Positions 3,310-35,280 of a DNA stretch of 64,000 nt are shown here, in pieces. Position 1 is the first letter of the stretch, and each line of letters opens with the position of its first letter. Source of the stretch: a virus (lineage: Duplodnaviria > Caudoviricetes); the IMG/VR virus record IMGVR_UViG_2724679654_000001, positions 1 to 64,000 of that record. One strand, written 5' to 3'. The notes under the pieces were generated by a model. The model was not told where the DNA came from. It ran no database searches and saw only the letters and a list, made by a program, of their open reading frames with translations. The position numbers and the translations under genes are program-made.

Positions 3310-5040
3310 TTAAGCCGCTTCGGCCTTACTATTCTGGATAACACCGTTCTCGATCCAATGAACCCCGATAACTGGCGGCAGACCTGGCGGAGATTTCAGT
3401 GTTGCGAACAGAATAATTGATTCGATATCGCCATTTTCAGCTAGGTCAATTAACCAGTTCAGGTACGCGCTGCGGCTTGGAAGATCAAGTAAATCAACCT
3501 CATCAACCACGAAGAATTTGATTCCTGACACATAACTTATGGCTTCGGCAATCATCGAATCAATCAATAAACGTGTTGCTTTAGAGCTAAACGAATAAAG
3601 CTTCCCGTCATCTTCCATTATGGTCATATCATCCTGAATATGGACGTTTCCATAGAACCCGAGTGCTTTAACGCTAATCGCTATCCGGTCATTGATTGGT
3701 TTCAATGCAGCGCCAAGCATTTCACTCGGTATGCCATCAGATGACAGTGAGCTTGCAATTAGATCCCACTCCTGAACATCTGCGTGATATCCGGCTGCTT
3801 TTTTGGTTTTGATTTCGGCTTCTGCGGCCAGTTGAATTTTTTTGTTGATGGCTTCAAGATTGTCAGTGAACTGTTTTCGATTCTCTTTTAATACTGATAC
3901 TTGCTTGTTCAGTGCGTCAATATCATACTTTTGCACATTATTATCTTTGCTCTCAAGCATTGCCAATTGCTCACGCGCTGCTGTTGCCGTAGCAATATCA
4001 CGCTCACCGTTTGCCACTGCATTCTTCAGCATTTTTAACGTGTCCTCATATTCTGGTAGTTTCGTGACCGAATCTTCATCGCCATGCAAATCACCAGCTC
4101 GCTTAATCAACTCCTTGCCGTTGAATGTGAGTTCTGATCCACAATCCGGGCATTTGCACGCAATGTTACCGGGCATTGATCCCATAGCAAGCCTGCGCGT
4201 ATCCTCAACTTTTACTGTCCATATTGCTACTTGCTGGCGATCGTTATCGAGTTTTGTCCTGATGCGGTCAATCTTTTCGGCAACTTCGCGCAGCCGGACA
4301 ATTTCAGAATTGCGTGCTTTTGATCCATTCGCTTCCGCTTGAGCTGCGCCAAGTTTCTGGTTAGCTTGTTCAAGTTCTTTTTCCGTAAACTCCAAGTCGG
4401 CCTCAAGCTCTCTTTTCTTTGATTCATCAACTTCCGGAACGGGCGATTTCCAATCTGCGGCCTTAATTGCACCATACGTTTCACTGGTTGTTGCTTTCCA
4501 ATTAGCGCGCGCTTGCTTTACGTTTTCCAATGAGTGCTTTTCTGCGTTATCAAAACTCGACCGAAGGAAGGGTATGATCATTTCAACTTTTGCTGCATCG
4601 CATTTACGCTCCAGCAATTTGCCTTTCACTTCTGCCCCATCGCTTCTCAGGTTGCCCAAGTCAAACAAAAATCTTTTGCGTTCATCAGGCATGACACTGC
4701 CAAACAACTGAGGATTCAAAACGTAGGGTAGGGCTGGCGGCAATTGGCCGGTCAATTCATGCGTCCCGTTCGGTAGCGTAATGCATGCTTTTTTCCCGTT
4801 GTCGTAATCAACAAGCGTATAGCCGACATTGTTGCCATCTTCACGGTTGATCAGTAATCCATAATTCTTTTTGAGCGGTTCTTTCGGATTATCCCCGGTA
4901 AACGCATGGATGATGCCATCGCGCAAACTTGATTTGCCTGCCCGATTACTACCGCAGATCAGCGTAATAGGCGCGTTAACATCTATCTCAACGCGGCGCA
5001 CCGCAACCATTCCGGATGCTGATATTTTTTGTATTTTCAT
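3310..5040 (-). CDS. SMC/Rad50/SbcC-like ATPase
   Basis: Walker A GSNRAGKS, long coiled coil with CPDC zinc hook, Walker B VVDEVD. Confidence 0.85.
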   Translation of the reverse strand: MKIQKISASGMVAVRRVEIDVNAPITLICGSNRAGKSSLRDGIIHAFTGDNPKEPLKKNYGLLINREDGNNVGYTLVDYDNGKKACITLPNGTHELTGQLPPALPYVLNPQLFGSVMPDERKRFLFDLGNLRSDGAEVKGKLLERKCDAAKVEMIIPFLRSSFDNAEKHSLENVKQARANWKATTSETYGAIKAADWKSPVPEVDESKKRELEADLEFTEKELEQANQKLGAAQAEANGSKARNSEIVRLREVAEKIDRIRTKLDNDRQQVAIWTVKVEDTRRLAMGSMPGNIACKCPDCGSELTFNGKELIKRAGDLHGDEDSVTKLPEYEDTLKMLKNAVANGERDIATATAAREQLAMLESKDNNVQKYDIDALNKQVSVLKENRKQFTDNLEAINKKIQLAAEAEIKTKKAAGYHADVQEWDLIASSLSSDGIPSEMLGAALKPINDRIAISVKALGFYGNVHIQDDMTIMEDDGKLYSFSSKATRLLIDSMIAEAISYVSGIKFFVVDEVDLLDLPSRSAYLNWLIDLAENGDIESIILFATLKSPPGLPPVIGVHWIENGVIQNSKAEAA

Positions 5041-5057
5041 GATTAAGCTTCCTCGCT

Positions 5058-5936
5058 TTATTGATCTGCAGATTTCTCACCCAATGTACCGATGAGTTCA
5101 TTGATTATTCTCAAACACTGCCCGGAACGGATCATAAATTCGTTGTCGAAATAGTTATCATCGGTGTCGAATTCGGAGCGATCCTCAACAAGATCAGGAA
5201 GGGTGATTTTGCTAATTACTAATTTATTATCGATTGTAAAAAAACATCCTTCATCACCGCTCTGAAGTGCAATCTCAAGTTTTACCGGGCGCTTGCCTTG
5301 CAGCACATAATTGCTAACTGCTCCGGTATCAAGCGATTCATTTTTATATGTAATTTTCTTGAATGCAGCATCAGAGTCTTGCAGAACACAACTCCTGCCG
5401 AGCGCAAAATTATCAACACTGGAATCATCAGCAAGTATTAGTTCGCGCATGAATGATTCAATCGGTTTTTCAGTAACTAATCGATAACCGAGCCAATCAA
5501 GATCCTTGATTAATTTGTTGATAACATCATCAGAAACCTTAGTCGATGTTGTCTCAATACACATCAAATCATGCTCAGTATTGATCCACACGTTAAAAAA
5601 TTTGCTGACCGTGAAAGCTTTGGCATAGAGCGATTCGATAATCTGCTCTTTAAGATCACGTTTCATTTTTTTGCCAACTTTATAACCTTGCTCTTCCTCG
5701 ATCTGAGTGATTCTGCGCTTAAGTTCTTTATCAATAACCTGCACTGGCAAGAGTTTTTCTTGCTTTTCACACGTAATTAAATGGTTGTGACCAACTGATA
5801 TAAACGGATTTTCATCGCGCAATACTTTCCATCCGAATCCCAGTTTTCCCGGTATAACCAGATTGTTTTTCAGCAATTCAAAATCCGGTTTCCAGCCTTT
5901 CTCTGACCTGAATATTGTTAGATTTTTCATGTCCAA
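5058..5936 (-). CDS. rdgC: Recombination-associated protein RdgC (phage-type)
   Basis: KNLTIFR, GFGW, QEKLLP.QVI..EL, KAF motifs. Confidence 0.85.
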   Translation of the reverse strand: MDMKNLTIFRSEKGWKPDFELLKNNLVIPGKLGFGWKVLRDENPFISVGHNHLITCEKQEKLLPVQVIDKELKRRITQIEEEQGYKVGKKMKRDLKEQIIESLYAKAFTVSKFFNVWINTEHDLMCIETTSTKVSDDVINKLIKDLDWLGYRLVTEKPIESFMRELILADDSSVDNFALGRSCVLQDSDAAFKKITYKNESLDTGAVSNYVLQGKRPVKLEIALQSGDEGCFFTIDNKLVISKITLPDLVEDRSEFDTDDNYFDNEFMIRSGQCLRIINELIGTLGEKSADQ

Positions 5937-6460
5937 TCCTTATTGTTTTTTAGTACAATCTCGCTCCGTTTCACGTTGTGACCGTTATTCACAAGCACTT
6001 GATAAACATAAACTATTGTTGTGTTTATTGATTTTGCAATCTGCTTCGGCGTTTTTCCTGAATCGAACATTTCGCAAATCATGGTTTTCTTGTCTTTTCT
6101 CACCAGCCCCAGCTTTTCTCTTACTGCGCGCGCGTAAAAATTAGCTGTTTGTCGCGTGATAAATTTACCGTTCCCTTTATCAAAAAATCCCCGATCCATC
6201 AAAATACTATAAATATCACTGTTATTTACCATCCCTGATTTGATGCAAACTGTTATGCCGCGAATCAATTTTCTCGTTACAAATGTTTGTATTTCGTAAG
6301 GGTTTTTCTTTTGTTTGTAACGATCCCTGTCGGCCTCCGCTGATTCGGTGGTGTTTATGACGCTTGATATGCGATCAGGGATAGTGACAACCCCCAGCCA
6401 ATTTCTTGCTGCGTTTAGCGCTTCGTCATCGCTCTGATGGTTTTGTGCCGTTGTCTGCAT
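5927..6460 (-). CDS. Hypothetical DNA-binding protein (C-terminal HTH)
   Basis: GKTPKQIAKSINTTIVYVYQVL HTH-like segment. Confidence 0.6.
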   Translation of the reverse strand: MQTTAQNHQSDDEALNAARNWLGVVTIPDRISSVINTTESAEADRDRYKQKKNPYEIQTFVTRKLIRGITVCIKSGMVNNSDIYSILMDRGFFDKGNGKFITRQTANFYARAVREKLGLVRKDKKTMICEMFDSGKTPKQIAKSINTTIVYVYQVLVNNGHNVKRSEIVLKNNKDWT

Positions 6461-6465
6461 GTTTT

Positions 6466-7503
6466 TTACTCCAAATCAAACGATTTGCGCTTCGGTTGCG
6501 GCCTTTCTTCCTGCTGCTGCGCCTCTGCCATTAATTTACGCTGAATGTCTTCTTGCTCTGCCAGTGATGGTTCATCAGTTTTAGATTGGATTTCTTCCGG
6601 CTTGATATCCGGGTTATATTGCTCGATTTGTTTTGTTGATTCAGATTTGTCGTTGGTAATCTCTCCCGTTTCTTCATCAACAACTTCAGGTGCATCTTCA
6701 GGGATTATCTGAAAATCACCTTGTATATCATCAAGATGTTGATCTTTGCCTGCGTCTGCCATACCATCTAAAGCGGATGCTGTCTGAAATTCAATGGATA
6801 ATGGCAAGTATTTTGCTAGTCTACGAATTACTGTTTTGCGCCCCATTTCTATAAAATGATCTTTCCAAACAGAAGATTCCCGCTTGTTCTTGCGCTCACT
6901 TGCCGTTTTAATTTCTTCAACCTGGTATCTGCTCATAAACTCGAAAGCGTGACCGCCGTCTTTGAGTTTGGCTATTGCGTAAAATCCGATGACTTCACCG
7001 CGCGCACTCATCGATGGAGTATGGTTGAGTTTTTCATCCAGCCCATAGACAAGCTCAAATTTATCGTTTGAGCAAACTTCGTGCGCCGCTATACTGATGA
7101 TCTGACCGGAACGTCTCGCAAGGTCTATCAATCCTTTATAGCCAATAATTACCTGTACGGAATTGACCCATTTTTCATTGCCGTTTGCGTCCTTGCGTTT
7201 GGTGTTAAAAGGCAAAAGGTACGCATGTCCCAAAACCGTGTTTGGTTCCAGCCCCATTTGCGCGCACTGGCCAATTGCTCCGATAAGACTCGGAACATCA
7301 CATTTCGCAAGCGCCGGTGTTGTGGTTGCTGCAATTTGCGCAACTTTCAAAAGTCTCTCTGCGTTCAAATGCTTGGGTAGCATCTTGCTGATCTCCGCCT
7401 TCTTTGAGTTCAACAAGTGAGCTATCTGATCTTTAGGTTTTAGGTCAGAGAACCTTGCTTTGTCTTCGCCAGTTGCTGCGGCTTTTAATGCTTGTACGCT
7501 CAT
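6466..7503 (-). CDS. recT: RecT single-strand annealing recombinase
   Basis: GLEPN..LGHAYLLPF, IIGYKGLIDLARRSG, MGRKTVIRRLAKYLPLS. Confidence 0.95.
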   Translation of the reverse strand: MSVQALKAAATGEDKARFSDLKPKDQIAHLLNSKKAEISKMLPKHLNAERLLKVAQIAATTTPALAKCDVPSLIGAIGQCAQMGLEPNTVLGHAYLLPFNTKRKDANGNEKWVNSVQVIIGYKGLIDLARRSGQIISIAAHEVCSNDKFELVYGLDEKLNHTPSMSARGEVIGFYAIAKLKDGGHAFEFMSRYQVEEIKTASERKNKRESSVWKDHFIEMGRKTVIRRLAKYLPLSIEFQTASALDGMADAGKDQHLDDIQGDFQIIPEDAPEVVDEETGEITNDKSESTKQIEQYNPDIKPEEIQSKTDEPSLAEQEDIQRKLMAEAQQQEERPQPKRKSFDLE

Positions 7504-7513
7504 GATAATTTCC

Positions 7514-8446
7514 TTATTTTTTGAGTCTTAAAACACGAGAATCTGATGTTTTAAGATATTGATTGTAGATTCCAGGTGCCTGAGTTTTTATGGTTTCAAC
7601 ATCTAATCTGTCAGTAGACTGAGATTTCCATGTCAACACTGGCTTGCCGTTTGATATTGCTACGGAAGCAGTCTTAAGTATTTTCCCAATCATTATTTTT
7701 ATTCTTGTTTCAGCAGCTTCTCCGTTTTTCAGTGCTTGCTTTACAACTTTCAGCTCATCAATCAGATCTAGCAATTCATCGCTTGCTTCTATTGCTTCAC
7801 CGCTGTCACGAGAGTAGAGCCTTAAAATATCTTCCAGTGTCGTAGGTTCCGGTGCTTCGCGCTTCTGGATGCTGTCCCAAAACCATATTTCTTGATTGCG
7901 AATAATTTGGATCATTTCATCGTCACGATTAACCTGATGCACGCGCAGATCATCTGCTCCAATCAATGCCGCAACGATGGTTTTATTACGCCCCGTAATC
8001 ATTTGCCCATGCAGAACTTGGCTCGTGTAATACAGGGGTATTTCATCAGTCCCTTCTTCACCCCAATCCTTGGCGGCAAACGGATGAACGGTTTTCATTT
8101 CACCGTTCACATGCTCGCCATCAAGCATCAATTCAAGGTCGATCTCTGCTGCCAGAAACGCATGCTCAGGATCTAGGTAACGCTCATTTCTCGCTATAAT
8201 CTTTACGTCGTGGCCGCGATCTTCCAGCTCATCAACCAGCATTTCAATCACAACGGGTTCCCAGCGTTTCCCGCGATTGAATATTTTTTGTTTGGCTGGC
8301 GTTACTTCTTCTTGGTGTTCGCCTACTTTTTCTTGATAAAGCTGAAATTTCGACTTCCATGGCGAAACTCCCAGTATCGCCGCAGTATCAGACCCACCAA
8401 TAAAACGTGTTCTGTCGTGATGAATTTCTTGTGGTAATGCGCTCAT
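7514..8446 (-). CDS. YqaJ/lambda-exonuclease-family viral recombination nuclease
   Basis: IGGSDTAAILGVSPWKS, EID, EMKT, YYTSQV; adjacent to recT; ATG at 8446 chosen. Confidence 0.9.
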   Translation of the reverse strand: MSALPQEIHHDRTRFIGGSDTAAILGVSPWKSKFQLYQEKVGEHQEEVTPAKQKIFNRGKRWEPVVIEMLVDELEDRGHDVKIIARNERYLDPEHAFLAAEIDLELMLDGEHVNGEMKTVHPFAAKDWGEEGTDEIPLYYTSQVLHGQMITGRNKTIVAALIGADDLRVHQVNRDDEMIQIIRNQEIWFWDSIQKREAPEPTTLEDILRLYSRDSGEAIEASDELLDLIDELKVVKQALKNGEAAETRIKIMIGKILKTASVAISNGKPVLTWKSQSTDRLDVETIKTQAPGIYNQYLKTSDSRVLRLKK

Positions 8447-8681
8447 TACTTCTTGCTCCTTGTAATTTTTGCCAGCCGCCACGCTTCTAAAAATGTAAAC
8501 CGCTCGCGAATATAGAAATCAAATCAGATATGAACTTCCATGTTCTAACGATCTTCGTGATCATGATTGTGTTCTCCGCAGAACTGATATGTATCGCACC
8601 ACCGCTGTGCCGCGCCATCGTCCATCCAGATTGCTGATAGCACCAGCAGGATTCCCAAAACAATCAATTTGATCTCTTCGT

Positions 8682-25904: not shown

Positions 25905-26323
25905 ATGTGCGGCGGAATCCAATATCAAGATCATAAAATCTACTTTCCACAGCCCGAAGCCAGATTACCTATAAGTCTCAGGCATGGCGGTGTAACTTGG
26001 GTTATCTGGGGTAGACGTAAGGACGAGTCAGTAGGTAAATTCCCCAACGGTGGATGGGCGCGAATTGATTCCATCAAGATGGGTAAATGGAAACCTTGGC
26101 ATCCCAGACCCGTATTGATCCCTGCAGATAGTTTCATGGAAAAGGATCAAGAAAAGCAATCTCATTGGATCACTCTTGCACCTGGTATGGCTATTCAAGC
26201 GTTGCTTGCAGAGCGAGACGGTGAAAAAGGGGGTATATGGTTACTGAAGAAACTCCATTTGAGTATCACTGGATTCATGATAGATGGCCAAGATTGAGGA
26301 AGATAGCTACTGTCGCGGATTGA
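25905..26323 (+). pseudogene. SRAP/YedK-like protein, frameshifted near 26230
   Basis: N-terminal MCGG; the IHDRWP motif lies in the -1 frame ending TGA 26321-26323. Confidence 0.65.
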
Positions 26324-26945: not shown

Positions 26946-27320
26946 ATGACAGAAGATGAAAAAATTGAATATTTTGGTGACGATAATATTCAACGGGAAG
27001 TCGAAAGTTACTGGAATGATGTTTATGAAATAAGTTTGGCAATTATTCGTAACACAAAGATATTTGATTTTGCCAATATAGCTTTAGCTAAACCCAATAT
27101 TCATGAAATGATTGCTACATTGAAGTTTATCAATGGGACATTAAATTTAATACTTTCATTGAATAGATCGGGGAGAATAAATGTCGATGATACAAGGCAA
27201 ATTCATAATGCAAAGCAACAAATATTGATGATGCAACAAATTGCAATAGCATTAGAGAATGAGGATAGGGATGCTTACAATTATGCGGTAGAACGCTTAC
27301 AAAAGCAGGCTCCATTTTGA
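26946..27320 (+). CDS. Hypothetical protein, AT-rich
   Basis: 124-aa ORF. Confidence 0.65.
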   Translation: MTEDEKIEYFGDDNIQREVESYWNDVYEISLAIIRNTKIFDFANIALAKPNIHEMIATLKFINGTLNLILSLNRSGRINVDDTRQIHNAKQQILMMQQIAIALENEDRDAYNYAVERLQKQAPF

Positions 27321-27344
27321 TAAACCACGTAAGGGAGATATTTC

Positions 27345-27500
27345 ATGAGAAAGAATTTATTGGACAAAGAAACCCTTCAGGCTAGGGTAGAGTTTATGAA
27401 GCAATTAAAAATTGCTAAGAATGAAACTGAAAAGCTTAAATCACAATGGGAAGAAATAAGTAGCATATTGAGTTCAGATAGCCACAAAAAAGCTGCTTAA
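27345..27500 (+). CDS. 51-aa coiled-coil protein (MRKNLLDKETLQARVEFMKQL...)
   Basis: Not in ORF track; AAGGGAG RBS; followed by terminator. Confidence 0.6.
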   Translation: MRKNLLDKETLQARVEFMKQLKIAKNETEKLKSQWEEISSILSSDSHKKAA

Positions 27501-27523
27501 TAACAACCTGACAGTTAGAAACT

Positions 27524-27546
27524 AAACCCGCTTCGGCGGGTTTTTT
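27524..27546 (+). terminator. Rho-independent terminator
   Basis: AAACCCGC-TTCG-GCGGGTTTTTT. Confidence 0.85.
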
Positions 27547-27964
27547 CGTTTCAAACTATTATCGTCAGGACAAGCTGTAATTCCGTGAAAAATTATTCAA
27601 AAATTATTCCAAACTGAATTATGTGTTACAGCGCAAGCATAAAATCGCAGTTTGCGAAATTGTGCAAGTTGACCAATTGGCTAATTTAGAGGGTTGCTGA
27701 TGGCAATGTTGATTTCTCAGCCCTCATTTGTGGTCAAAAAAATTAACATTGCTATTTAATACATTATGAATTTTTCTTTCAAAGCTTTACATTTCCACCA
27801 TTCAAGCTTTACATTTAACCGAATTCCTCAGCATCACCGCTTGACTCAATCAGGCGTTTTTTTGTCTGCGACATATTGGTAATACCGGCGCTTAGTGGAT
27901 GGATTGCGCGTGTAACGAGATCTGCCAGTACAGATTGCGAAGTTTTGAAAACACAATACAGTCT

Positions 27965-28540
27965 TTAAACAGGTGGATTGAGGGAATCCATTATTTTATT
28001 GTGGACAGATTCAAGATGATAATTTGATCTACATGGAAAGCGAATTAGTTTCAGACCGGCGGTCTTGCAAGCCTTTTCAACGAAAATATCCCTTGCGCGC
28101 GTCTTGCTAAGACTATGGCTTAGGTCGTCCAATTCGATAACGGCAAGAACAGCGAGTGTATGCTTGTCGCAAACCACATAATCAAAATGCTTTGATGATA
28201 TTTTATAGAATGCAGTATTCCAATTTCTTCGACTTAATGCGTGATCAGGAACCAGTACGTCAGCAATGCGCACTTTTGCAAATATTTCATAATCATCATT
28301 TGATAAGGCTTGTTTCAGCGCCAAGAAAAATGAATGTTCGGCTTTAGAAAACAAGTTTCCCAGTGATTTATATTTAAAATTAGTAAATCCACCACTAAGC
28401 TTTATAACAAGTTTCAGTAAAAAAGCCAGAAAAACAATTGTGAAAACAAATATCCAGATATCAACTAACAGAGGCTGTTTCGCTATCATATCGGTGAATG
28501 TTTTAGCAACAATAGTCATATTCGGAGAAAGATCCATCAC
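27965..28540 (-). CDS. DUF2726 family membrane-anchored protein
   Basis: N-terminal TM; L.S.AE..F, KVRIADV, KHFDYV, IELDD.SH, RD. Confidence 0.85.
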   Translation of the reverse strand: MMDLSPNMTIVAKTFTDMIAKQPLLVDIWIFVFTIVFLAFLLKLVIKLSGGFTNFKYKSLGNLFSKAEHSFFLALKQALSNDDYEIFAKVRIADVLVPDHALSRRNWNTAFYKISSKHFDYVVCDKHTLAVLAVIELDDLSHSLSKTRARDIFVEKACKTAGLKLIRFPCRSNYHLESVHNKIMDSLNPPV

Positions 28541-28851
28541 ACCACCTGCAGATTTGAGAAAAGAAGATTAGCGGCAAGCAAAACGAAATATAAACCTGCT
28601 TAGCAATATGACCAAATCAGAAACAATAAACATCATGTTATTATTATGCATTTGCAGTCTCTCGGTTACTTGAATGGAGAAAACTAAATGGCGCGTTTAT
28701 ACTTTATATTAGAAGCTATTCTATTCTAAAGTTAATTAAGTAATAAGGACTTAAGAACTCATAGCCAAGTTATTTGACATTCCGTTCCAGATTATGAGGC
28801 ATTTTTTGTCGTATATATTACGTTAGGCTTCACAAACCCACCCCGCGCGAT

Positions 28852-29424
28852 ATGAAAATGTCAATTACACTATTGAACGACCTTAGTTTCGTGATCGGAC
28901 TTATCGGACTCGCGGAAATGCATGAGCGAACAGAGGTATCGCTATGGCTTGCGGATGAGACAGGATCGATTGCAGATCCCCGCGAACAATCCTCAGAGCT
29001 TACGGAACGCTCGGTGCGAGAGCCTTGCCATGAAGATGAAGTATTAAAACCAGTTGCTACCGATCAGGAACCCGCCAAATTAATTCCGGACGGAGACGAA
29101 CCGCAATGGATGAAGTTTCTGGTACTAAAGAAGTGGCACTTCACTTTAGGCGATGTTGATTGCGTACCGTCCGTTCCGCACGGTCACGAGAACGCAAAGA
29201 CTCAATCCTGGCCAAAATTGAACCCGTATACCGGACGTGTATTTGCTGCAATACATCAGGAAGATGTGTCGCAGAGACTCGATAGAAATGAAATGCGCCT
29301 AATGTGGCGAAACAAAGACTTTGTAGAGCGTTGTCATCGTCAAGTTAACTGGTATGCCAATAACTTCCCAAGCTTCCCATTCCGTCATGCTAGGCGCGGT
29401 CTGCTGCGCTTTCCAAGATGGTGA
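28852..29424 (+). CDS. Cassette 1: hypothetical protein
   Basis: 190 aa; D.D..PSVPHGH and KLNPYTG motifs. Confidence 0.7.
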   Translation: MKMSITLLNDLSFVIGLIGLAEMHERTEVSLWLADETGSIADPREQSSELTERSVREPCHEDEVLKPVATDQEPAKLIPDGDEPQWMKFLVLKKWHFTLGDVDCVPSVPHGHENAKTQSWPKLNPYTGRVFAAIHQEDVSQRLDRNEMRLMWRNKDFVERCHRQVNWYANNFPSFPFRHARRGLLRFPRW

Positions 29425-29471
29425 AGCCTCTAGCCCTGCGCCCCTGAGCTTGAACGTTAGGCATCAAGATC

Positions 29472-29918
29472 ATGAGCCTCAATCCACAGATAACGGGTAA
29501 CCTGGGCTTGTACTACTGCTGCTACAAGCTTTCATTGCTGGGCTGGAACGTTATGCCTACAACAAGAAATGCGCGGGGCGTGGACATCATTGCCTACAGC
29601 AGAGACGCCTCTCGCTTCAAAGGCATTCAAGTTAAAGCCCTCAGCAAGCGCGCCCCTGTGCCGCTCGGGCAGTCGCTGGACAAATGCATGGGTGACTATT
29701 GGGTCATCATCAACAAGGTGGCGTCCGCAGCACCGCAGGCATTCATTCTTACGCCGTCCGAGGTAAAGGAGCTTGCCCATCGCGGAGAGAAAGAAGGCCG
29801 CGTTTCTTTCTGGCTGCAACCCAATAGCTATGAGCAGCCTCAGTTCAAAGAGGCATGGGAACGCATCGGTCACGGTGGCCTTGATGCCCAACCCGGCGCC
29901 TCTGATCTCCAACGTTAA
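29472..29918 (+). CDS. Cassette 2: putative PD-(D/E)xK endonuclease
   Basis: RNARGVDIIA....IQVK; C-terminus reads through attC remnant. Confidence 0.75.
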   Translation: MSLNPQITGNLGLYYCCYKLSLLGWNVMPTTRNARGVDIIAYSRDASRFKGIQVKALSKRAPVPLGQSLDKCMGDYWVIINKVASAAPQAFILTPSEVKELAHRGEKEGRVSFWLQPNSYEQPQFKEAWERIGHGGLDAQPGASDLQR

Positions 29919-29925
29919 GTTTTTC

Positions 29926-30588
29926 ATGCCACTGACCGAAGCCATCCAAAAAGCACAAGCTCAATCACCCTGGCATGTTGGAAATGCTGTTCTATATGAA
30001 CTATGCAGCTCTCATCCAAAACATTCCCAAGAGCCTGACGTCATTGCTAAAGTTTGGCTGGTTGGTCGAGCATATGCCGCAGCAATTGAACGTAGAAAAA
30101 ACAAGTCAGACGAAAACGCTAATTTTTACGTCACCAAAGTCGCGCCTGACATCGCTAAGTCAGCCATCGATGCATGGATTGAAGAGGCCAAGCAATACGA
30201 CCGGCCATGCCAGGAATCGTGGTCAACGTTGCTTCACGTTCATCACGAAACCACGCAACTGTTTAGCTCAATAAGTGGACTTGAGAAGCGTTCGCTGGCA
30301 TCGAAGTATCTACACTTCCATGTGCCTAAGCTTTTTTACATCTACGACACCAGAGCTAGTCAAGCCATCAGCATGCTTAGCGGCGTATTGAAGCGGGCTG
30401 GAAAGTCGAGCGCCAAAGTTGATAACGAGTATCGTAAGTTCGCCGAAAAATGCTTGTCTCTGCATGAGCATGTCGAGAGTCGATATGGTGTCAGCCTCAA
30501 CCCGAGAGAAATTGACAACTTACTGCTTTATGTTCACGAAAAAAACCTAATCATTCGTTCAACGGGACTGCCTACGGCAGCTCGTTAG
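29926..30588 (+). CDS. Cassette 3: putative HhH/OGG-fold DNA glycosylase-like protein
   Basis: SLASKYLHFH.P.LFYIYD.RA motif; ATG directly after GTTAAGT core. Confidence 0.55.
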   Translation: MPLTEAIQKAQAQSPWHVGNAVLYELCSSHPKHSQEPDVIAKVWLVGRAYAAAIERRKNKSDENANFYVTKVAPDIAKSAIDAWIEEAKQYDRPCQESWSTLLHVHHETTQLFSSISGLEKRSLASKYLHFHVPKLFYIYDTRASQAISMLSGVLKRAGKSSAKVDNEYRKFAEKCLSLHEHVESRYGVSLNPREIDNLLLYVHEKNLIIRSTGLPTAAR

Positions 30589-30712
30589 AATTATCAAAAG
30601 GCGTTCTGCAATAAAGGGAAGTCTGGATAAAGATAATTCGCATTAGGGATCGGGCAGCATGCCCCCTGTGGGGCCATACCATTAGGTGTTAGTTGTTGAC
30701 ACCGCATAGCTA

Positions 30713-32716
30713 TCAATTGCTTAACCCACCAGTAACAATATGCGCAATCCGTCTATCCTTAACATCCTGACCTACTTCTTGCTGTGCTGAAGCAATAACC
30801 GTTTGATTCCTGCTTCCCGTGCTTGCCAATGGCTCTACAATTGATGGCTCATCCGCTGGCAATTGAGGCGCTGGCATTCGGGGTGATTCTGGCACCTGTG
30901 CGTGAGCGGTTTGAACATTCACAACGGTTGCGGCATAGCGTTTATCCAGTGCAATACGGTTGGTATCAATGTACTCGGATGCCGTTCTGCTATTAGCGCC
31001 ATAATTCAGGTTCATTGATCGCTGAGTGTTGGATGATAAGTCATCCTTCGATTTTCCACCCTCAGACCCGCGTATGATCTCTTGCGCAGCACTTGGTCCA
31101 AGTTGGTGCATCATGTATATGTTTTCTGCAGTGACCGGCAATCCTGCTTTTCTAAGCATGGCCATGTTCTGGCTGGTTAACTTCATCCCGCCTTCAATGT
31201 TCTGATCAACATCGAAACGATTCTTTATTCCCACACCTGACGCTGTTTGTCCGGTGAATTGATATAACCCGAGCGCGCCAGTCTTGCTGATGGCATTGGG
31301 ATTGCCGCCGCTCTCCATTGCCGCTATTTTCTGCATCATTACCGGGCCAAGTCCATATTTCTTAGCCTGGGCAGATATCTTATCCTGTATTTCCTGCGAT
31401 ATTCCGCCCGGAATATTGGCTGAAGTGTTGGCAGCACTGGTCTTTAATGTCTTGATGCGCTTGGCTTCGGCATCGGTATAGGTTCCATATCTTGATAGAT
31501 CCTCACCGCCCTTGATGCCGTCAAACATCGCTTTGTGACGGTAACCTTTTAGCGTTACATTCTCTAATGCAGATCCTGCCCCGGCCTTTGCAACATCGTA
31601 TGCGCGCTTTGTGGCCGAGGTAATGCTTGATACTTTATCGGTGATAGGCTTGATTGCTTTTGGAATATCAATACCAAGCTTATCTTTTACAAACCTAGTG
31701 AATATATTCCAGGATGATTCTACTTTGCTTCCAATGCTGCTAAGTACATTGTTGAATTTGTCTGTTGTAGAATCCCAGGAATTGATGATTTTTGTAGCCA
31801 CTGATTTAAAATCAGTAACAGTCTCATCCCATGCCTTGCCTATTGCTCCACCGGTTATGGATGCACCGGAAGCAATGAATGGCAATGCCATCGCAAGCAT
31901 AGGTAGAATATAACGCCTCAACCAGCTGCTATCACCGCCTGATGGATCTGATGAAGATGTTGTCTCATCAATGTTCTTTAGGCTTTTGTTGGCTGCCTTA
32001 TTGAAAACCGACTCATCCCTTCGGAATAGCTTTATTTCACCAAATATCTTTCTAAACCACCGGAAAGTATTCTTTTGTTCACGCCCGGTACCGGCTGTCA
32101 GGATCTCATAACCACGCGCCATGGGTTGCGCCACTTCACTGAATGCCTTAATTGCCGGGTCAGTTTCCTCCATGCCGCTGCTGGCAGAACTCACGGCATC
32201 AGCAATCTTTCCAGCCGCTGCGCGCACTACCCCATCTTCGGATGGTGATGAGCTAACATATTTGTCATTGCTGCCAGCACTTTCATTTCCGAATAAAGGA
32301 CTGCTGCTGCCACCATTCTTTATGAATCGACCGGTTTTGGTGTCTCTTTCGGCGGACTGATTCACTTTTGCAGTCGATCTGACATTTCCCGGTGTTGCGG
32401 TTGGTTTTAGTTGTGCCATGGCAGTTTTGCGAGTGCTGGCAGCCGATGGTGCTGATGATGATGCTTTGGATTTACGCGCGCTTTCATCCCTGCGCTGTGG
32501 TATGGCAACCGGTTGTTGCGGTGCGCGTTCGTTGTCACTCTTGCGATTGGCTGATACCTGCCTGTCAGATGGCAATCCGGATACAACCTTCCCACTGAGT
32601 GCCAATCTAACGGCTCTCATGTCATTCCTGATGTCACTCCACAGGTCAAACGTTCTGTTTAAGTCGAGCGGTTCGCCTATCAGGAAGCCGTCATTGTCGC
32701 TTTTAATGTTTGCCAT
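30713..32716 (-). CDS. Tape-measure-like protein with lytic transglycosylase domain (P1 Sit-like)
   Basis: AAMESGGNPNAIS..GALGLYQF SLT motif; Trp-spaced amphipathic repeats. Confidence 0.75.
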   Translation of the reverse strand: MANIKSDNDGFLIGEPLDLNRTFDLWSDIRNDMRAVRLALSGKVVSGLPSDRQVSANRKSDNERAPQQPVAIPQRRDESARKSKASSSAPSAASTRKTAMAQLKPTATPGNVRSTAKVNQSAERDTKTGRFIKNGGSSSPLFGNESAGSNDKYVSSSPSEDGVVRAAAGKIADAVSSASSGMEETDPAIKAFSEVAQPMARGYEILTAGTGREQKNTFRWFRKIFGEIKLFRRDESVFNKAANKSLKNIDETTSSSDPSGGDSSWLRRYILPMLAMALPFIASGASITGGAIGKAWDETVTDFKSVATKIINSWDSTTDKFNNVLSSIGSKVESSWNIFTRFVKDKLGIDIPKAIKPITDKVSSITSATKRAYDVAKAGAGSALENVTLKGYRHKAMFDGIKGGEDLSRYGTYTDAEAKRIKTLKTSAANTSANIPGGISQEIQDKISAQAKKYGLGPVMMQKIAAMESGGNPNAISKTGALGLYQFTGQTASGVGIKNRFDVDQNIEGGMKLTSQNMAMLRKAGLPVTAENIYMMHQLGPSAAQEIIRGSEGGKSKDDLSSNTQRSMNLNYGANSRTASEYIDTNRIALDKRYAATVVNVQTAHAQVPESPRMPAPQLPADEPSIVEPLASTGSRNQTVIASAQQEVGQDVKDRRIAHIVTGGLSN

Positions 32717-33639: not shown

Positions 33640-35280
33640 TTACCTGCCTTTTCTGCGGCGTTGTTTGCGGTTCTGGATAATTGGAGTATCTGTTTCTATC
33701 ACGCTATCCATTTTTTCTTGACCGAATCCTTGCCCACCTGGTCCGTCACCCGGGTTTTCATCCTTCGTTTCTACAATTGGCGCATACAGTTTTGCCTGAT
33801 CTTCATCGAGCATCATGGTCTTGGATAAGAACTCTTGCATCATTTCTTTAGTAGCGCCAATATCTTTCATTTGCTGCATGGCTTGAACCAGTATCATCCC
33901 GGAATTCATCGAATCAGCTTTCGTGCGTTGCTTCTCAGCTTCTAATGCTGAGATAGAACCGTAGAAATTAACAGTAAATGGCCGTTCATGAGGATGAAAC
34001 ACCGTTCCATACTTGTGCATCGTATGGATATCAATAGCGTGATAAATAAATTCTGATAATGAGTTACGAATAATCCTTGAGTTTTCTGCTGCCTGAGCCG
34101 ACATTCTGAAAAATCCACCTTCACCAAGACCGCCAGCCAGTTGGTCGGCAAAACCAAGCATAGCCAGATCAACGCCAATGGCACCGGAATACATGCGGGC
34201 GTGAAGCATAATATCTTCAATGCTGATATTGTTTGTTCTACCAGACTGACCACCATTTGCGTTACCCACGGTCGTGAGTTGTTTTTCATTGAACGTAGGA
34301 ATAATGTGCCTGATCCGTTCCAATACCGGCTGACCGTTCTTGACAGCATCTTCAGCACGCAGTTTCGATGCGGTCAGCATGGCTTTAATAGATGCCAGGA
34401 ATCGGTTTTGTTGCTCAATCGACATTGACGTTAGGTTAACAGTCAGCATTTGTTCGTCTATCGAATCCAGCCACCGTTGGCCAACAATACCGACAAGTGA
34501 TGAATACAGATTGTCGTATGGGCCTTCAGCGTTATAGAACAGCGAGCCACCGGCCATGCTTGGCATGATTGGTAGATTCTCAATGTTATCTTCGGTAATT
34601 GCTATCCTTAACGCCTTCTCTACAACCCCAAACTGTGGCACCCATTGCGTGCGCGGCATTTTGAAGCGTGCCATCTGTGAGATATCCAGTCGCTCGAAAT
34701 TGCGCGCCCCGGTATAGACCGCATAGCCAATTGTTCTATTACCCTTCTCGAACGGCTGCACCAATTGCGGCCTGATCATTTCTCCGGTGTAAAGATCCAC
34801 AACTCCGCGCGATCTTTCTGCATAAATTCGCGCGAAAGAGTCGCCAAAAGCTGCCCCGGTGTACGCCACTGTGCGCGCCTCACGGTTAATCAGTGGCGAT
34901 AATGAAGCCGATATCTCATCAGCAATAGCAGCCAATCTTTTGTTCTTTTTGGCCTCCGCCGTCTTTTCGATAAAGACCAGATCACCGCTTGTTTCGTGCC
35001 CACCAAGCGCGCAAGTAACCAGCAATCCTATTGCGGTCGATCCAATCGGATCTGATTCCATACTCGACCATTTGTTATAAATCTGCTGGCGTGACCTGGC
35101 GGCGCGTCTGTCAGTCCCCAGCAATGACGAGACAGTGGTCTGTCCTGATCCGTAAAGATACGCATCGGATTCTTTTATTTCCTTGGCCGCCGGGAGATTG
35201 GATTTAGCCCATTTACTGGATGTCATTCCAATACTGGCAAGAAAGCTGTTCTTTTTGATGTGATTTTCTGACTGCGGCAT
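33640..35280 (-). CDS. Portal protein (P1-like)
   Basis: 546 aa; MESDP, GGLGEGGFFR; divergent from protease. Confidence 0.75.
   Translation of the reverse strand: MPQSENHIKKNSFLASIGMTSSKWAKSNLPAAKEIKESDAYLYGSGQTTVSSLLGTDRRAARSRQQIYNKWSSMESDPIGSTAIGLLVTCALGGHETSGDLVFIEKTAEAKKNKRLAAIADEISASLSPLINREARTVAYTGAAFGDSFARIYAERSRGVVDLYTGEMIRPQLVQPFEKGNRTIGYAVYTGARNFERLDISQMARFKMPRTQWVPQFGVVEKALRIAITEDNIENLPIMPSMAGGSLFYNAEGPYDNLYSSLVGIVGQRWLDSIDEQMLTVNLTSMSIEQQNRFLASIKAMLTASKLRAEDAVKNGQPVLERIRHIIPTFNEKQLTTVGNANGGQSGRTNNISIEDIMLHARMYSGAIGVDLAMLGFADQLAGGLGEGGFFRMSAQAAENSRIIRNSLSEFIYHAIDIHTMHKYGTVFHPHERPFTVNFYGSISALEAEKQRTKADSMNSGMILVQAMQQMKDIGATKEMMQEFLSKTMMLDEDQAKLYAPIVETKDENPGDGPGGQGFGQEKMDSVIETDTPIIQNRKQRRRKGR

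Follow-up and report, generated by a model that had tools for sequence, protein, structure and literature searches.

Are the three genes that an integrated temperate phage carries between its terminase operon and the divergent operon for portal and transglycosylase ordinary phage cargo, or are they integron gene cassettes that entered the phage genome and can no longer leave it? The question is raised by an IMG/VR record of 79,220 bases (IMGVR_UViG_2724679654_000001; Duplodnaviria, Caudoviricetes), classed as provirus and 89% complete, the first 64,000 nt of which were analyzed and are referred to here as the window. Three intact, co-oriented open reading frames (ORF1, ORF2 and ORF3) fill window positions 28822-30590, the block considered below. 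A sequence-only reading had proposed that the block is a cassette array inside a prophage, with every attC recombination site internally deleted and the genes thereby locked in place. The first part of this proposal is borne out by model matches on the gene junctions, by relatives of ORF1 and ORF2 that lie between attC sites elsewhere, and by flanks of phage origin, so that the block very probably represents three integron gene cassettes occupying a slot of variable cargo in the genome of an integrated temperate myovirus.

The motifs on which that reading was built are all present in the DNA. The ORFs start 24, 9 and 5 nt past the cores GTTAGGC (28822), GTTAGGC (29456-29462) and GTTAAGT (29914-29920), respectively, and are followed by attC-like stretches (37, 35 and 46 nt, respectively). 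The motif GTTAGAA (30584-30590), which had been counted as the GTTRRRY core closing the array, departs from this consensus. Moreover, GTTRRRY alone is not above chance, with 98 occurrences in the window against a shuffle mean of 111 and with 90 of 100 shuffles reaching 98. Because the core motif alone is at chance level, an attC covariance model of 69 positions was trained on 25 attC sites, all of them taken from other genomes and not from the window, and run with filters off over the full 64 kb on both strands (128,000 strand-positions). The top three of its six matches in the window (E up to 10) were the three junctions, all on the plus strand, with scores of 17.5 bits (29428-29462), 16.1 bits (30545-30590) and 12.7 bits (29886-29920), followed by 9.5 bits for the next window match. 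In control DNA from five loci of related phages (92,003 bases) the best model match reached 11.1 bits, and 13 loci that carry ORF3-family genes (73,315 bases) gave no match with E up to 1. Intact attC sites left out of training scored 19.3-42.6 bits. The junctions are thus real but partial attC matches.

An ordinary phage moron operon whose cores and attC-like stretches merely happen to resemble cassette boundaries would be consistent with the lack of GTTRRRY enrichment, with the modest E-value of each model match and with the non-cassette cargo that related phages carry in the same slot. Chance does not readily place the top three of 128,000 strand-positions on exactly the three junctions in the correct orientation, however, when controls stay at or below 11.1 bits, nor does it explain a near-identical metagenome cassette whose match stops at the core on one side and leads into a genuine R'' box on the other, or relatives of genes 1 and 2 that are flanked by full attC sites. 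We consider chance resemblance extremely improbable.

The metagenome evidence concerns cassette 1. Logan contigs of four metagenome runs, whose underlying studies may be related campaigns, were compared with positions 28700-30700; a further run, X1, which contains 0.95 of the words, may be the source sample. A 673-nt contig of a groundwater run (X2 record 9) aligns without gaps to 28821-29429, differing at 10 positions (98.4% identical), and diverges before 28821, the match beginning 1 nt before the first core. Past GCCT (29429) this contig continues with AAC, forming the canonical GCCTAAC and then an attC left arm, and it is here that the window diverges from it. The same loose end was found in run X6, from a separate study. 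A 262-nt contig of a runoff run (X9) is identical to 28765-29026 and, as it spans the left joint, shows the phage-cassette joint to be present in another data set.

Relatives of the ORF1 product in genome sequences place the gene family in integrons as well. The protein has 268 relatives, P0001 (90%) being among the closest, and retains all 42 invariant columns of their alignment; it has no match in Pfam, PHROG, PADLOC or NCBIfam and belongs to no named family, and its structure model is poor (predicted local distance difference test, pLDDT, 62.8). An R''-like motif (RYYYAAC) is found at most 25 nt past the stop codon in 10 of 20 genome loci, where chance predicts 0.022 per stretch searched, and GTTRRRY at most 45 nt before the start in 13 of the 20 (chance 0.034). 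At two loci (L022 and L023) GCCTAAC follows the end of the ORF1 protein match, the frame being interrupted. One relative (L011, 5001-5564) lies between attC sites of 60 nt each (4925-4984 and 5575-5634), another (L025) is likewise enclosed by attC sites, and a third (L010) is followed directly on its 3' side by a 42.5-bit attC; in genome G006 an integron integrase gene is accompanied by an array whose sites are of the same type (L050). No copies of ORF2 or ORF3 were found in the 20 genomes with ORF1 relatives. In a related side observation, another member of the ORF1 family (45% identical) was found in a provirus (L077:4001-4620); a terminator-like hairpin comes after this gene instead of an attC, the best model match at that locus being 9.7 bits.

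For cassette 2, a weak match to Mrr_cat_2 (E 0.036, below cut-off) and 1806 relatives were found, some of which are named Holliday junction resolvase or PD(D/E)XK endonuclease in their sources; among the closest are P0241-P0243 (87-91%). Relatives occur in 6 of 401 order-level genomes, and three of the six close places are cassettes: one (L066) is flanked by full attC sites of 83 and 69 nt, the latter opening with the same GCCCAAC as junction 2, and two (L063 and L068) follow attC sites of 26.5 and 28.7 bits. Homologues that occur as cassettes in the company of attC sites, the subject of the test proposed by the sequence-only reading, therefore exist for ORF1 (L011, L025, L010) and for ORF2 (L066, L063, L068). 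The closest ORF2 relatives have ...GGLDAQP in common and then differ in sequence and length. In the window, A-Q-P is encoded by GCC CAA CCN, that is, by the R'' core, and we read the divergent C-terminal tails of these relatives as translated attC.

Additional observations were made around ORF2 relatives. In genome G101 the relatives at L063 and L068 are followed, before the next ORF, by a degenerate site (CCCCAAC..., no R' core), which indicates that attC decay occurs in bacterial arrays too. When plasmids were searched with the block DNA, four matches were obtained, to ORF2 alone; on these plasmids (rep_cluster_429; L001-L004) the ORF2 relatives, at 73-75% DNA identity, stand directly after a RelB/YafQ toxin-antitoxin pair and adjoin restriction, abortive-infection and methylase genes, a defence-rich neighbourhood. 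The block DNA had no match in the phage collection or in the E. coli genomes, and a viral scan with single proteins returned nothing for ORF1 or ORF3 and one non-cassette locus for ORF2.

In the case of ORF3, the junction-3 model match and the protein tails of its relatives are indirect signs that it may be a cassette also. The protein has 2091 relatives, some with PF27257; among the closest are P0121 and P0122 (86% and 83%). The tripeptide N-L-I, encoded in the window by ACCTAAT, is replaced in the five closest relatives by N-L-T, as would be expected from a canonical ACCTAAC, and an R''-like tripeptide is present in 30 of 108 relatives against 9.6 expected. A metagenome scan with ORF3 yielded only relatives of 37-57% identity, none with attC. 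The AlphaFold model is of good quality (pLDDT 87.2, predicted template modelling score 0.84), except for the tail (214-220), which falls below 50. A fold search of the PDB gave nothing significant (best E 0.17); its best matches, as a weak lead, were HhH-GPD DNA glycosylases (Ogg, MutY, MagIII) with template modelling scores of 0.37-0.41 and E values of 0.17 or worse.

No complete attC is present at any of the junctions, as the sequence-only reading had maintained. A complete site consists of R''-L''-loop-L'-R' with a foldable bottom strand of about 55 nt or more, and the intact sites collected here measure 57-103 nt, compared with 37, 35 and 46 nt at the junctions; an initial hairpin-plus-core scan likewise gave no complete attC anywhere in the window. 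In the model alignment of junctions 1 and 2, the outer 17 positions on each side are kept and the inner 35 of 69 (L'', loop and L') are replaced by 1 nt. On the bottom strand, the intact L011 and L066 sites fold at -18.5 and -20.4 kcal/mol with R and L stems. The corresponding values are -2.0 kcal/mol for junction 1, where 196 of 200 shuffles fold equally well or better, and -1.2 kcal/mol for junction 2, where 175 of 200 do. Junction 3 is of a different kind: R'', spacer, L'' and loop are kept in the model and the L'/spacer positions are deleted. In the hairpin formed here (-7.6 kcal/mol, z -2.4), L'' is paired with GTTAGAA and R'' is unpaired. GTTAGAA may represent an L' box, the attC having been truncated on its 3' side, or it could be an R' core brought beside the loop by an internal deletion between two copies of CGTTAG; on either account junction 3 is left without an R box. 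Internal deletion, claimed for all three sites, accordingly holds for junctions 1 and 2, and junction 3 is either internally deleted or cut at its 3' end. A candidate 65-nt site that would make junction 3 complete by extending it to 30609 was ruled out, as the DNA from 30587 onward is backbone common to related proviruses (L052 and L053) and as folding adds nothing to the L-box hairpin.

The sites at junctions 1 and 2 thus appear to have lost their L''-loop-L' centre, and that at junction 3 to have no R' partner. Integron integrases bind the folded bottom strand with its paired R and L boxes. Lacking such pairs, the sites could probably not be recombined by an integron integrase, and the three genes would no longer be excisable or open to shuffling. 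Nor was an integron integrase found on the element: TIGR02249 has no match at E <= 0.001 in the whole 79,220-base record, in agreement with the sequence-only reading, and the combination of intI, attI and cassette promoter (Pc) that makes up a complete integron is not found beside the array.

It might be argued that the block continues to function as a cluster of attC sites without an integron integrase (CALIN), and that its short sites are an unusual functional class recombined by the integrase of a host. The R'' and R' cores persist at junction 2, junction 3 retains its L-box hairpin, and two short metagenome contigs (X2 record 13 and X11 record 5) match 34-36 nt of junction 3, so that this stretch is not exclusive to the phage. 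Such a class would have to function, however, at lengths well under those of all intact sites, with 35 of 69 model positions gone and no folding beyond that of shuffled sequences at junctions 1 and 2, with an R'' at junction 3 that has no R' partner, and with scores under that of every intact site left out of training. We therefore regard a working CALIN as very unlikely.

The surroundings of the block are those of a tailed temperate prophage, in that an integrase, lysogeny regulators, and packaging and virion genes are found on one contiguous element. The integrase, with an arm-binding domain, is encoded at 1-1197; the window further encodes helix-turn-helix (HTH) repressor-like/CI-like and CII-like regulators, TerS, TerL, portal, transglycosylase, tail, sheath and PmgG-like proteins, as well as a DarB-like domain and methylases. 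By its portal protein, the closest named phage is Xanthomonas phage Rb1 (62.9%). G+C content changes from 0.33-0.39 left of 28800 to 0.48-0.55 within the block.

The limits of the block follow from comparison with related proviruses (L052-L054), as had been suggested for this locus by the sequence-only reading, and agree with those it had drawn: the left end falls at 28818-28822 and the right end at 30584-30590. On the left, 28781-28817 aligns locally with L052 (29 of 37 identical, score 39), a score that none of 500 shuffles reached (shuffle maximum 29). On the right, local alignments begin at 30587 (L052) and 30593 (L053), and in BLAST the three proviruses are 83% identical from 30587/30596 through to the portal gene; leftwards, their similarity resumes from 28690. 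The DNA enclosed by these common flanks is unrelated to the block and measures 1.1 kb or 3.1 kb. With the same flanks kept and different cargo enclosed, the block evidently fills a variable slot that is a hot spot for cargo exchange. The cargo of L052 (11147-12221) consists of two small A+T-rich ORFs, and that of L053 (4476-7526) of one long, repeat-rich ORF on the other strand.

The suggestion that the first core, with TTGACA upstream, may be a remnant of attI and Pc is not supported. Positions 28781-28817, directly before this core, are phage backbone shared with L052, and a promoter scan found no -10 element matching the TTGACA at 28774. About 90 nt left of the conserved flank (28691-28780), containing this TTGACA, are missing from L052. 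The features of the slot and its flanks are collected in Table 1.

Table 1 Coordinates of the cassette block, its junctions and its phage flanks in the 64,000-nt window.
Feature	Positions	Strand	Remarks
DUF2726 gene	27965-28540	-	A+T-rich cargo region left of block; PF10881 at 4e-36
Left flank	28781-28817		Phage backbone common to provirus L052; ends 4 nt before first core
Core GTTAGGC	28822-28828	+	5' boundary of cassette 1, left end of block
Cassette 1 gene (ORF1)	28852-29424	+	190 aa; motif D-C-x-P-S-V-P-H-G-H ... W-P-K-L-N-P-Y
Junction 1	29426-29462	+	37-nt putative attC remnant ending in core GTTAGGC; without L boxes and loop; best model match of window
Cassette 2 gene (ORF2)	29472-29918	+	148 aa; PD-(D/E)XK-nuclease-like; last 11 residues read as translated attC remnant
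Junction 2	29886-29920	+	35-nt putative attC remnant; R'' GCCCAAC and spacer joined to spacer and core GTTAAGT; without L boxes and loop
Cassette 3 gene (ORF3)	29926-30588	+	220 aa when started at the ATG of its relatives; predicted all-helical; last ~15 residues read as translated attC remnant
Junction 3	30545-30590	+	46-nt putative attC remnant; mutated R'' (ACCTAAT), spacer, L'', loop hairpin, then CTCGTTAGAA; no spacer and R' beyond
Right flank	30587-30730		Phage backbone common to related proviruses; runs into 3' end of transglycosylase gene
Transglycosylase	30713-32716	-	phrog_4067 at 1.6e-45; followed by tail-tube-like gene, then portal on minus-strand side
Portal	33640-35280	-	phrog_1497 at 1e-153

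Several results weigh against the interpretation of the block as three cassettes with disabled sites. Apart from the chance-level frequency of the core motif, each junction is a weak model match when taken singly (E values of 0.042, 0.09 and 0.59, from a shortened calibration), and all three scores lie under the 20-bit threshold of Qi et al., which belongs to their own attC model and makes the scores only loosely comparable. At junction 1, the sequence after GCCT can alternatively be aligned as a 2-nt insertion with substitutions before the central deletion, so that the exact deletion end-points are not fixed. Relatives of ORF1 outside cassettes also exist, and those of ORF2 include non-cassette copies at three loci (L062, L064 and L065) and on the four plasmids. 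For ORF3, no full attC was found at the 13 scanned loci (24-57% identical genes), and its one match in 401 class-level genomes (L076) is not a cassette. An enrichment of integron integrases among the genomes with ORF1 relatives was considered and dropped, the frequency being 11 of 20 against 148 of 401 in the class-level control (a tally that includes four genomes flagged unpublished, G459, G561, G715 and G727, and is the only count resting on them); with integrases above the curated cut-off this common among the sampled genomes, their presence is a weak argument in the group. An empty slot was sought in viral contigs with no match. Finally, the loss of activity is something we infer from the make-up of the sites.

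How the cassettes reached the slot is less clear-cut. Insertion by an integrase is favoured, at roughly even chances: a circle of three cassettes would have been inserted by the integrase of a host into a GTT secondary site of the phage, after which parts of the hairpins would have been lost. This preference derives from the left end, which lies within 1-4 nt of the core crossover in two independent comparisons (metagenome contig and L052). A cassette-derived block may instead have entered without an integron integrase, through illegitimate or microhomology-mediated capture or through a swap between phages via the flanks, perhaps with attC sites that had already decayed in the donor. At the right end, a join within the L' box that overlaps the phage flank by 4 nt (AGAA) is a possible reading, the differing cargos between the same flanks of L052-L054 fit exchange by homologous recombination, and a bacterial array does have a decayed site after its ORF2 relative (L063/L068). 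A left end this close to the core crossover would, however, be rare under random breakage, and we see entry without an integrase as a real possibility that nevertheless falls short of an even chance. Imprecise excision from a neighbouring array does not explain the block, which is internal to the prophage and about 28 kb from its integrase end.

Under integrase-mediated insertion, the subsequent loss could be aided by the palindromic centres of the sites, since such centres are prone to deletion, and at site 3 the deletion could fall between the L' and R' copies of CGTTAG. As fixed morons, the genes would then depend on promoters of the phage for their transcription, possibly on the promoter region at about 28675-28703. 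Since gene 1 is 98.4% identical to its environmental copy and all three sites are gutted, hairpin loss was fast relative to gene divergence. Furthermore, two of the three sites have been reduced to the same 35-nt architecture. It is conceivable, though rather doubtful, that attC hairpins are lost from phage genomes quickly and directionally and not through slow neutral decay, possibly as a result of selection against excision by host integrases or of hairpin-removing replication and recombination functions (SbcC-like, RdgC, RecET-like). If so, phages would routinely fix mobile cassettes as morons, and many morons would be former cassettes invisible to attC-based tools. As a separate observation, SbcC-like, RdgC and RecT/RecE-like proteins are encoded at 3310-8482 of the window, and their hairpin-processing or recombination functions could bear on such loss.

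Two further results concern the vicinity of the block. A 130-aa ORF at 25905-26297, starting with M-C-G-G, by eye resembles the start of SOS-response-associated peptidases and has no match in Pfam, PHROG, NCBIfam or PADLOC, and an Rfam scan of 27000-32000 gave noise only.

Integron cassettes form a very large mobile gene pool, and phages are a main vehicle between cells. The present locus is a concrete example of how cassette genes may leave the integron system and become ordinary phage cargo. The screens published for cassettes in phages depend on intact attC sites and would miss arrays that are stripped of these sites but have intact genes; a recipe for finding such arrays is to look for partial attC matches at the junctions between genes whose families are known from cassettes. 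Many cassettes reportedly encode anti-phage defence, according to recent preprints. If this were true of the genes described here, the fixing of cassettes by a prophage would bear on superinfection exclusion; no match of the three block genes to defence families was found in PADLOC, and NCBIfam likewise gave nothing on their function.

A phage route for integron parts, as envisaged in the sequence-only reading, is not new in general, being already described by Qi et al. (2023, PMC9892861). In their study, 10,705 phage genomes contained three complete integrons, one In0 and 17 CALINs, and phage attC sites were shown to recombine with attI1; to count as a CALIN in their pipeline, a locus needed two or more attC sites, each scoring 20 bits or higher (PMC9892861). 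The block resembles these phage CALINs in having co-oriented cassettes without intI in a phage genome, but differs from them in that no site is complete and the scores are 12.7-17.5 bits by the model of this analysis. With all junction scores below 20 bits, the locus would be expected to fall below such screens.

With sedentary chromosomal arrays of environmental proteobacteria (e.g. G006, L050) the block has in common the attC type (R'' RYCTAAC, ~60 nt) and the gene families found as cassettes (ORF1 relative at L011, ORF2 relative at L066), but unlike these arrays it has no integrase, attI or intact attC and is flanked by phage structural operons. In mobile integrons and plasmids, excision is no longer possible for a cassette that has lost its attC or that has been inserted at a GTT site of the non-specific kind. 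This is the state proposed for all three cassettes here, with the difference that the fixed cassettes of plasmids and class 1 integrons are single resistance cassettes, whereas here a whole three-cassette array, made up of genes with unknown functions, is found in a phage. As with phage morons in a variable slot, the cargo varies between conserved flanks and its G+C content differs from that of the left neighbour, but in contrast to ordinary morons this cargo is traceable to integron cassettes. The matches listed by the literature search include no earlier whole temperate-phage array with every attC decayed, and the new element is precisely this: a whole cassette array in a temperate phage in which every attC site has decayed.

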